NCBI GenBank assembly: GCA_036785375.1
Contig: JAWMAR010000406.1
Coordinates: forward strand, 1,240,001-1,304,000
DNA: 64,000 bases
Reading direction: 5' to 3'
DNA from: Leucoraja ocellata
Taxonomy: Eukaryota
Below the pieces are notes generated by a model. It was not told the DNA's origin and searched no databases. It worked only from the letters and a program-made list of their open reading frames with translations. The position numbers and the translations under genes were made by a program. Shown here piece by piece: positions 1-3,877 of this stretch (its first letter is position 1; the number at the start of each line of letters is the position of its first letter).

Positions 1-102
1 GAGCGGGGCCCAGGGCGGAGCCATGGGAAGATACGCCGCCCCACCGCAGCACCAACAAGAACATCCTCGGGCCAAACCCATCGGAAACGCTCCCAGAAAT
101 AA
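1..102 (+). CDS. C-terminus of DIRS gag-like ORF1 (partial)
   Basis: Frame 1 is open from base 1 (ERGPGRSHGKIRRPTAAPTRTSSGQTHRKRSQK) to TAA at 100-102, two bases before the pol ATG at 105. The tail is basic and low-complexity. The gag assignment is by position only. Confidence 0.6.
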   Translation, partial: ERGPGRSHGKIRRPTAAPTRTSSGQTHRKRSQK

Positions 103-104
103 AC

Positions 105-2005
105 ATGGAGGTAGGTGGGTCTGGTTCCTGTCGACATACACAGACAAAGGGTGTTGTATTAACAGGAGGGCGTTTGAGGTTCTTCAAACATGTTTGGTGC
201 TCCCTTACTAACAACGAGTTTATACTCAACAGTATCAGTGGATACAAAATTGAATTTAAATCTGGCATAGAACCGCCAGTTCAGCACATGCCCCAAAGGG
301 TATTCCTTCCCTCACATTCGGAGAAGGTAGAAGGACAAGCTGAACTAGACAGGCTCGTGGCCAAAGGCATCATAGAAAGGACCAGACACGAGCCATTGGA
401 ATTTGTATCCAACATCTTTCTAAAAACTAAAAAAGATGGTGGATGTCGTATTATCATTGATTTGACATCACTTAATCAGTCTGTTGAGTATCAACATTTC
501 AAAATGGAGACGTTTGTCACTGCCAGACAACTGATCTCCAAGGGATACTTCATGGCAAGCATAGATATCAAGGATGCTTACTATCTAGTACCCATTCATA
601 AAGATCATTTCAAATATCTGAAATTTATCTGGATGGGGCAACTATGGCAGTATAGAGCATTACCCAATGGTTTAACGACAGCTCCCAGATTATTTACCAA
701 AATCCTTAAAGTGGCCATGAAAAAATTGAGAGAGCAAAATCATTTAGTCGTGGCCTATCTGGACGATGTTCTCATATTAGGGAGAACAAGGGAACTAGCT
801 GTCGCAGGAGTTTTAGCCACTAAACAACTCCTTGAAAATTGGAGCCAATTACTAACATGGATTACCTAGGCTTCACTATTGACACTATCCGTATGACTGT
901 TACTCTGCCTAGAGATAAAAAAGTTACACTTACAGAAGCCTGTAACAGTTTAATCGCAAAACCGCAACCAAGGATACGGCACGTAGCCAGAGTCATTGGT
1001 AGCATAGTAGCAGCATTCCCAGCTGCTCAATTTGGGCCCTTGCATTATCAGAATTTGCAAAGAGCAAGGACATATGCACTACGTCTAAGTAGGGGGCATT
1101 ATGACCGTAAAATGGATTTACCCGCTGAAGCCAAATCAGAACTTCAGTGGTGGGTGGATAATATTTGGCACAGTTACAGTCCTATCGCTGTCACCAATCC
1201 TAACATAACCATCACTACGGATGCCAGTGCTTTAGGCTGGGGAGCTACTAACTCTATAGCCAGCACAGGTGGCAGATGGACTAACTCAGAGGCATCGCTA
1301 CTACAATCACTTGGCATAAACTACTTGGAGATGCTTGCCGCATTTTATGGGCTAAAAGCATATGTATCCGACATGCGGCATGTACATGTCAGGGTTATGA
1401 TTGATAACACAACGGCGGTGTCTTACATCCAGCACATGGGTGGTATAAAATCAGTATCATGCGACAAATTGACTACTATAATCTGACAATGGTGTGTCGA
1501 GCGACATATTTGGCTATCAGCTGCCTACTTACCAGGCAAGCTAAATTCAGTGGCGGACACCAGGTCACGAAAATTCAATGACAACATCGAATGGATGTTA
1601 GACCCAAAAATATTTGCTAGAATTGTCAAGCAATACGGTACGCCAGATATAGATTTGTTTGCATCTAGACTAAATCACCAACTACCCATGTATGTGGCTT
1701 GCGAACAAGACCCAGGGGCAGCAGCGGTAGATGCCTTCACGCTGGATTGGGGAAATTTCTTTTTCTATGCTTTCCCTCCCTTCTGCCTCATCAGTCGGGT
1801 ACTCCAGAAAATACAAGCTGACTCAGCTTCAGGTATTCTGGTCGTGCCCGACTGGCCTACCCAACCATGGTTCCCTATTTTCCACGACATGGTGGTAGAG
1901 TCACCTATGGTTTTTCATAGCCACCCACAACTATTGACTCACCCGGTATCTGGCATAAGCCATCCATGCCATCAAAAATTGAACCTCCTGGTTTCCAGAT
2001 TCTGA
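105..2005 (+). pseudogene. DIRS pol (reverse transcriptase + RNase H + N6-adenine-methyltransferase-like domain), disrupted
   Basis: RT motifs are KKDGGCRIIIDL, IDIKDAY, LPNGL..APRLF and YLDD. RNase H motifs are TTDAS..GWG, INYLE and DNTTAV. The MT domain has DLFASRLN and YAFPPF. There is a frameshift near 840 and an in-frame TGA at 1484-1486 (I*QWC); ORF 1550-2005 continues the same frame. Confidence 0.92.
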
Positions 2006-2976
2006 ACAGACCTTACCAGGGATTGGGGTTATCAGAACGAACAATCACCACCATGTCGGCATCCCTGCGAGATTCCACCAAGAAACAGTACTTGACCTAC
2101 ATCAGGAAATGGGAACAGTACTGCCTCAATGCAGGGACATCTTACAAGACAGCTTCGATAACGGACGTGCTGGAGTTCCTAGGCCACTTGCACCATGACC
2201 AAAAGATGAGCTACAGTGCCATCAATGCAGCACGAAGCGCCCTGTCCGCATACCTCATGCCCCAAGGACATCACAGTATTGGATCCTACCCCCTGGTTAT
2301 CAAACTCCTTAAAGGGATCTATAATACCAAACCCCCTACACCTAGATACACCCATGTGTGGGATGTTAGTGTAGTTTTGCAACACCTTCGAGGTTGGCCT
2401 CCGGTGGGATCATTGAGCCTGGAGCAGTCCACTATTAAGACCCTCATGCTCATGGCGCTCGTCTCTGCTCAGAGGGTTCAGTCGCTGCATCTTTTAAGAC
2501 TGGACTACTTGGTGACCACCCCAGATTCCATTACTTTTACCATACCGGGGTTGGTTAAACAGAGCAGGCCAGGTACATCCAACACTCCGTTAATTTTCCG
2601 GGCTTACCCTCCAGAACCTAGGCTTTGTGTTGTGACCCACCTACATGATTACATAGACACAACCCAACCACTTAGAGGGAGTGAGAAAGCCTTATGGGTC
2701 AGCCATAAAAAGCCTTTTGGACGGGTTACCAGCCAGACAATATCTAGATGGTTGAAACAGGTCCTACATACCGCAGGGATTAACACAGATGTTTTTAAAT
2801 CCCATTCAACCAGGGCAGCGTCCACGTCAGCGGCGACAAGGATGCAGGTTCCCATAGACCACATCCTTGGTACAGCGGGATGGTCAAGGGAATCGACATT
2901 CCAAAAATTCTACCACAAACCGCTGATGGAGAAGGACGTCTTTGCGGAGAAAATTTTAGAATCCGCAAATTTATAA
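1966..2976 (+). CDS. DIRS tyrosine recombinase (phage-integrase family), intact ORF
   Basis: 336-aa ORF with catalytic R (AQRVQSL), H-x-x-R (HSTR), W (AGWS) and Y (FQKFY). AATAAA lies at 3013-3018. Confidence 0.93.
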   Translation: MPSKIEPPGFQILNRPYQGLGLSERTITTMSASLRDSTKKQYLTYIRKWEQYCLNAGTSYKTASITDVLEFLGHLHHDQKMSYSAINAARSALSAYLMPQGHHSIGSYPLVIKLLKGIYNTKPPTPRYTHVWDVSVVLQHLRGWPPVGSLSLEQSTIKTLMLMALVSAQRVQSLHLLRLDYLVTTPDSITFTIPGLVKQSRPGTSNTPLIFRAYPPEPRLCVVTHLHDYIDTTQPLRGSEKALWVSHKKPFGRVTSQTISRWLKQVLHTAGINTDVFKSHSTRAASTSAATRMQVPIDHILGTAGWSRESTFQKFYHKPLMEKDVFAEKILESANL

Positions 2977-3172
2977 TTTACAGCCCAGGGGAGCTATTTT
3001 TTGTTATTGTGAAATAAACATTTTTGTTTTAAAAAACTAACAAATTCGTTGGTCTTTAGATACCACTTCCTCCCTCGATGATCTTTCGGCAGTGAGTGAT
3101 ATAACTGTTACACGGTTTGAAATCACAGACCTTTGAAGTCTTCACGTAGTCACTCACGTGACTCCGAAGTAA

Positions 3173-3475
3173 AATAGTGAGATTAAACGAGTACTTACCA
3201 GTACGAAGTTTGATCTGTATTTTATGAGGAGTTACGATGAGGGATTACGTGCCCTCCGCTCCCACCCTCATTGTATAGATCAAACTCGGGCTGATGTCTC
3301 ATTAATCTTTACTATCTTTACTTCAATATTGTGTCTACCTGTGATTCCACACCGCTGCTTGGAAGTATGCCGCGCCTGCGCGCTGGGTGGGTTCTTCACG
3401 TAATCCCTCATCGTAACTCCTCATAAAATACAGATCAAACTTTGTACTGGTAAGTACTCGTTTAATCTCACTATT
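3173..3475. repeat. 79-bp inverted repeat: DIRS internal complementary region (3173-3251) vs right terminal extension (3397-3475)
   Basis: The arms are reverse complements with a single mismatch (3205/3443). Confidence 0.95.
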
Positions 3476-3877
3476 CTGCTTTAGCACTTGTCACCTTATG
3501 AACTTAAAATCGTACAAGCCAAATGCAAACATGGAATAGGTTGGAGAATGAAAAGTGAAATGTTGGAGAAATCCTACATTTTCTTCGGTTACAAATTACA
3601 ACACGGATGTGTGAGGCTCCAAGGTCTCCTTGTGGATAAAATGCGCTTGAGTTTCAATATAATTTGCGGGGTGGGAGATTGCAACCTTCACGTGGTCCGC
3701 CCTGTTTCAACGAATGCAATCTACCTGGCGTGCACAATCAAATAAGATCAAACAGAACAAGTTGTCCTACAACTTTAGACTGTGCACGCCATACGCAAGA
3801 TGAAGAAGAATACAATTAGTAGTGCTTACGATAGTCCACCTCCAGCATAGTTTTGGAATTAATTTAAATCTGTTAGT

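Follow-up and report, generated by a model that had tools for sequence, protein, structure and literature searches.

How are the second and third of the overlapping genes of a DIRS1-like retrotransposon translated? In the parts of the literature that we covered this point is unaddressed, save for a frameshift quoted as a guess for Ngaro elements, and it is raised in a direct form by a 4.8-kb DIRS1-like element at the start of the 64,000-nt stretch of DNA analysed here (the window). The window begins inside the element, whose 5' end lies about 1.3 kb ahead of it; the element spans L001:3695-8475, and window positions are L001 positions minus 5000. Read on the forward strand, it comprises ORF1 (408 aa), pol and a tyrosine recombinase of 325 aa, has inverted termini and ATT ends, and includes an internal complementary region. 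ORF1, the gag gene, starts at L001:3876, upstream of the window, and its 3' end covers positions 1-102, with a TAA stop at 100-102. It is followed by pol (105-2005), which carries the reverse transcriptase, an RNase H-like region and a methyltransferase-like region, and by the recombinase exon (1999-2976), with SAM-like core-binding and catalytic domains. The internal complementary region at 3139-3251 consists of the complement of the element's 5' end and that of its 3' end, joining at AAT, and the right inverted terminal repeat (3367-3429) is continued by a right extension to the ATT that ends the element at 3475. The inverted repeats agree over 64 bp at 89%, and among 20 close copies the 5' end is ATT in all 20 and the 3' end ATT or ATC in 19.

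Pfam places a reverse transcriptase domain in pol (RVT_1, E=4.5e-13), 3' of the gag-like ORF1, and both recombinase domains (PF00589 and PF13495) score above the Pfam cut-off, with residues R159, K187, H269, R272, W295 and Y305 invariant or almost so in 30 homologues. The methyltransferase-like region matches Dam (PF05869) at E=0.011, under the cut-off, and has a conserved FPPF motif. ORF1 has no Pfam match, no protease domain was found by Pfam in the element and no RNase H domain in pol, which has a TDAS motif at what we take to be the position expected for the RNase H region. The window family is young: its best 40 matches to bases 1-400 are 98-100% identical, and its pol-start motif occurs at 1,415 places in the genome. 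A protein labelled Leucoraja erinacea matches the genome at 99%, which makes a skate the probable host. The window copy's own pol carries two lesions, a frameshifting deletion of 34 nt near 838 and a stop codon at 1484-1486, and the other 19 close copies have neither. Three copies with a common 1,048-nt deletion in pol form a non-autonomous lineage and were probably copied in trans, and two adjoining pairs of copies were seen, one tandem (L021) and one divergent (L018). The 5' end of the element (L001:3700-3820) holds a probable promoter, with motifs kept across families, one of them GC-rich; others we take to be E-box-like (CACGTG) and TATA-like. In run X24, 13 read starts are stacked at L001:3761, which is element base 67, just past the left inverted repeat; this pile-up, present in one run only, is a possible transcription start.

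The preliminary description of this DNA had proposed that pol is a removable intron whose excision hands the pol ATG to the recombinase, and its reading of the two sites proved accurate. The ATG at 105-107 is followed by GAG (108-110) and GTAGGT (111-116), so that GAG|GTAGGT at 108-116 is a near-consensus candidate 5' splice site (D2), in phase 0 in the pol frame. The candidate 3' splice site (A3, 1985-1998, ending CAG) has its AG at 1997-1998, immediately before the ATT at 1999, and falls between codons of the recombinase frame. Joining the two would skip 1888 nt (111-1998; 1922 nt in copies without the deletion), which is nearly all of pol, would cut between codons at both ends and would give an in-frame product of 2 + 325 aa. 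Both sites also encode protein, as had been cautioned: D2 overlaps the pol codons for Glu-Val-Gly, and the A3 region those for Cys/Ser-Arg and Phe-Ser. Part of the conservation of donor and acceptor described below is due to this overlap.

By simple consensus counts, D2 is tied for the best match (8 of 9) among the 168 GT dinucleotides in 1-3500, and it is retained in 38 of 40 copies of the window family. With single-base variants it was also located, by motif search, at 34 of 40 divergent loci in the same genome, the remaining 6 yielding none. In one own-genome family GTAAGT replaces GTAGGT (GAG|GTAAGT) while the encoded amino acids change, and Thr replaces Met. When relatives from metagenomes were compared over the 126 nt that precede their conserved GGRL motif, a phase-0 donor matching at least 7 of 9 positions was present in 21 of 27, against 14 of 297 control windows within pol; a good phase-0 donor is missing in the other 6. 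The 12 nt just 3' of the donor (117-128) are conserved even at third codon positions and form a possible cis-element of the unspliced RNA; one might speculate that this conservation at silent positions fits a packaging signal, placed as in retroviruses. We also observed tandem donors 4 nt apart (GTAG-GTRRGT; window 111-120), the second out of phase, and similar pairs occur in distant families (L041, L065, L076, L096 and L155).

Upstream of the donor, the sequence holds a candidate for how ribosomes enter the pol frame. TTTTTTA and AAAAAAC are textbook retroviral slip sites, and a U UUU UUA heptamer lies in gag at L001:4994-5000 (window -6 to 0), the following G being window base 1; from this predicted -1 frameshift site a transframe segment (1-110) is open in the pol frame. 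Of the 30 loci from relatives that include a pol start, 27 entered the comparison (L074, L078 and L097 excluded), and the heptamers, TTTTTTA in 16, AAAAAAC in 9 and TTTTTTG in 2, are in the -1 phase in 27 of 27 cases (26 of the 27 loci), a count for which the list of heptamers was drawn up after an earlier look at the relatives. Between heptamer and donor the pol frame is interrupted by stops in 2 of 33 loci and open in 31, as against 11 interrupted and 22 open for the third frame, and the 40 codons upstream of the heptamer contain pol-frame stops in 30 of 33. Single sequences give weak GGCC hairpins after the slip site (-3.7 to -14.7 kcal/mol); no consensus fold was found in the 34 nt after the site, and no conserved long-range fold between it and the donor. 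A -1 ribosomal frameshift at this heptamer would produce Gag-Pol from unspliced RNA, and from spliced RNA the same frameshift would produce a Gag-transframe-recombinase fusion. We favour this fusion, made by splicing and slippage together, as the main recombinase product, and from the phases and conservation of the sites would give it a probability of roughly 0.55.

The switched pol ATG of the preliminary description fared less well. ATG 105 has A at -3, G at +4 and the gag stop 2 nt before it, and if the same splice were served from this codon the products would be free Pol and a free Met-Glu-recombinase, reached by ribosomes that reinitiate past the gag stop (TAA-AC-ATG) or from a doubly spliced RNA in which a leader donor is joined to TTTTTTAG. 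We consider this unlikely, in spite of good conservation close to home: of 34 own-genome loci, 31 keep the ATG, all 34 have A at -3 and 33 have a gag-frame stop at -5; the leader donor is conserved in 19 of 19 loci in which the 5' end was found; and in 3 of the 4 window-family copies examined no other ATG intervenes between TTTTTTAG and ATG 105. Against it, an in-frame Met stands between slip site and donor in only 3 of the 21 metagenome relatives that have the donor, and out-of-frame ATGs, which would hinder a leader-spliced pol mRNA, occur between TTTTTTAG and the pol ATG in 28 of 33 loci. The leader junction was found neither in the 8 RNA datasets described below nor, in searches with exact patterns for variants already seen, as a retrotransposed form in the genome. 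AAAAAAC, which takes the place of this motif in 9 relatives, cannot be an acceptor, and after these results a role for TTTTTTAG at window base 1 as splice acceptor for a pol mRNA was dropped as its main one. As a switched start codon ATG 105 is probably not the core mechanism; in the own-genome clade it may be a second route that adds a short Met-Glu-recombinase.

The recombinase fusion that we favour depends equally on the acceptor. A3 by itself is ordinary, with 11 pyrimidines in 16 nt and 7 of 216 AGs scoring higher, and judged from the window copy alone it could be a product of chance, so the case rests on conservation. Among 40 divergent loci of the same genome, with recombinases 50-68% identical, a YAG stands right before recombinase codon 1 in 38 (TAG in 16, and re-registered by 1 nt in two), and in 38 an in-frame Met upstream of codon 1 is absent. 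The first internal Met is not fixed either, lying anywhere from residue 2 to 55 or missing from the first 100 codons. In 10 families, it is at the acceptor that third-position variability ceases to follow the pol frame and follows that of the recombinase. Recombinase residues 1-18 are thus coding, yet they lack a dedicated start codon. In a weak alignment with Cre, recombinase residue 23 is paired with Cre 35, and residues 1-18 may match the first helix of Cre.

An ATG belonging to the recombinase frame is indeed present at 1966-1968, as the preliminary description had pointed out, but it appears to be dispensable. An open recombinase frame of exactly 325 aa was found in 29 of the best 150 own-genome matches, and of 20 loci chosen for the length of this frame, 13 have TAG, a stop in the recombinase frame, as their acceptor; because this in-frame stop follows ATG 1966 in a multi-copy subfamily, that codon can be done without. 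The description had also looked to intact family members for retention of both sites: five copies with the TAG acceptor have gag, pol and recombinase all unbroken, and the donor is kept with variants. It had called the branch point not clear-cut, and so it remains; a possible T-N-A lies at -27 to -25 (1972-1974), and of 39 loci 33 share its T and 37 its A, a conservation confounded by pol codons.

The metagenome relatives, whose hosts are presumably marine invertebrates, comprise 80 loci, of which 68 passed length and start filters and fell into 41 families; 39 were used after exclusion of L078 and L107. In 38 of the 39, a phase-0 YAG with at least 7 pyrimidines lies within the open recombinase frame, and in 38 that frame opens at, or shortly before, a phase-0 acceptor. 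Where the frame is open for at least 60 codons, an acceptor is present at codons -75 to -64 in 23 of 24 families, as against 2 of 15 families with short frames. This upstream acceptor mostly coincides with the methyltransferase codons for PPF-S, whereas the short-frame families mostly have PPF-C and, as in the window, codon 0 as the predicted acceptor. In 14 of the 39 families a pyrimidine-rich TAG marks the precise start of the frame, and the T fraction in the 14 nt before codon 0 is 0.55 where use of that site is predicted (12 loci) versus 0.31 in 19 loci. In a quick tree the acceptor classes cluster and the codon-0 class needs 2 changes, so these counts are not independent and represent a few evolutionary events rather than dozens, and p-values computed from them are overstated.

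Several other arrangements were seen at this end of pol. Further phase-0 YAG sites lie at window positions 1794 and 1920, corresponding to recombinase codons -68 and -26, which are predicted acceptor positions in some relatives. L107 stands apart from the other families in its layout, with an upstream stretch of 647 open codons in the recombinase frame. Two loci (L037 and L038) have pol and recombinase in single frames of 1014 and 1016 aa; these arose from different small deletions, private to each, which rules them out as a lineage.

While conservation across families thus supports pol as a removable intron, the spliced RNA that the preliminary description had hoped for was not encountered. 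No read or contig joining 110 to 1999 was found in 8 RNA datasets from unspecified tissues, with low, two-stranded coverage: four raw runs, searched in 1-6% of each run's reads, and four contig sets guessed to be RNA. In the four runs the donor was covered to a depth of about 8-89 and the acceptor to one of 52-104, with reads on both strands and most of them 85-95% alike to the window copy. This looks like read-through of many old copies, not the element's own mRNA, which makes the RNA test a weak one, but one that lends the splice no support. Nor did the genome, when searched with exact patterns for variants already seen, yield a copy with the exact spliced junction, whereas the unspliced donor motif is present in 10,535 + 1,415 copies (about 12,000), and this although the copies with the common 1,048-nt pol deletion did multiply. 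This leaves two readings: a splice that occurs seldom or not at all, or an intron containing a signal that copying requires. Among 9 copies with internal deletions, the gaps that could be resolved, those outside L012 and L078, lack GT..AG ends. In one metagenome copy (L078:1273-1530) a deletion fuses the pol start in frame to the recombinase.

The missing spliced RNA and DNA speak for an alternative without splicing, in which the recombinase is reached by a second -1 frameshift from pol within the overlap or by reinitiation after the pol stop, the splice-like motifs arising as side effects of pol codons or serving U1 binding for some other purpose. Relative to pol, the recombinase lies in the -1 frame, and a frameshift has been proposed for Ngaro (Poulter and Butler 2015, as quoted in a passage of PMC13003380). 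We nevertheless hold this explanation to be quite unlikely. The usable overlap shrinks to 1-2 codons in TAG-type families, only 2 of 40 own-genome loci have a slippery heptamer within the overlap, and 14 of 39 metagenome families have one at scattered places, and residues 1-18 are under coding constraint even though no Met is conserved.

Least probable is a direct join of the leader donor to the recombinase acceptor with a start at the internal Met at window 2053 and another role for donor 111, since, for all that the leader donor is conserved and a perfect CAG|GTAAGT in the window family and the sequence around Met 2053 is a fair context for a start, this residue is not conserved, several families have no Met for 40-100 codons, the 18 upstream coding residues would be lost, and the junction was found neither in the genome searches nor in the 8 RNA datasets. 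In each of the 19 loci with the 5' end found, the leader donor itself (L001:3827-3853; L127-L159) lies 104-150 nt from that end, and in 18 of them it is followed 23-63 nt on by a YAG just before the gag ATG, a spacing often below intron size. In a passage of PMC4495291, DIRS gag is inferred to carry an acceptor when exonised in TMPO and ZNF451, and an acceptor before gag fits that inference.

In the plan that we favour, then, pol is an optional intron, quite likely spliced out, as judged from the conservation and phase of its ends, between the phase-0 donor at 110|111 and the phase-0 acceptor at 1998|1999. An unbroken copy is predicted to make Gag of 408 aa, Gag-Pol of about 1050 aa and Gag-recombinase of about 740 aa, and fusion to Gag would bring the recombinase into the particle. 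For animal DIRS1-like elements at large, we would lay even odds on the joint claim that one HIV-like -1 slip in gag and an optional pol intron together switch the partner of Gag between reverse transcriptase and recombinase, that a moving acceptor (codon -72, -26 or 0) makes the long and short overlaps of the reading frames reported in the literature, and that a block inside the intron keeps spliced RNA from being copied. If this is true, the annotated N-termini of DIRS recombinases would change, the variable overlap of pol and recombinase would be explained, and frameshifting and splicing would act in series in a retroelement that has given more than 10,000 copies to a genome. The model names exact junctions and a slip site and is open to direct test.

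Parallels exist in retroviruses. The gag-pol slip site of HIV-1 is U UUU UUA and that of delta- and betaretroviruses A AAA AAC; retroviral env is made by splicing, and avian leukosis env retains the first codons of gag. The DIRS elements have the same types of heptamer in the same phase, and the proposed splice likewise removes pol to express a 3' gene. They differ in having the slip site ahead of the donor, which would turn the product of the spliced RNA into a Gag fusion made by frameshifting, in that the 3' gene encodes the integrating enzyme, and in having no protease recognised by Pfam.

Among DIRS relatives, the element resembles the DIRS1-like elements described by Piednoel et al. (2011, PMC3266345) and Gazolla et al. 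(PMC9210276), which, in the passages covered, likewise have gag, reverse transcriptase, a methyltransferase-like region and recombinase in overlapping frames, and share with it the inverted termini, the ATT ends and the internal complementary region. Those passages do not mention splicing and refer to frameshifts only as sequence damage; the proposed splice and gag-pol slip would explain why some recombinase overlaps are long and others short. More widely, no natural splice or gag-pol slip for DIRS1-like elements was found in passages of PMC7192593, PMC3950715, PMC3266345, PMC9210276, PMC6681497, PMC4157794 and PMC4495291, a set that does not extend to the main reviews and supplements, and the novelty of the plan is not certain. 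With Ngaro, for which the quoted proposal is that the recombinase is made by programmed frameshift, the element shares a recombinase frame that is -1 to pol and overlaps its end. It differs in that this overlap lacks a conserved slip site, the conserved one lying between gag and pol. Finally, the plant Ty1/Copia element EVD has a conserved alternative splice that yields a subgenomic gag RNA, with a role for U1 at the donor, according to the passages covered of Oberlin et al. (2017, PMC5580714). EVD and the DIRS elements would thus both be retrotransposons in which a conserved alternative splice sets protein ratios, but the splice in EVD provides Gag alone, with early termination, whereas that in DIRS elements would provide the recombinase.
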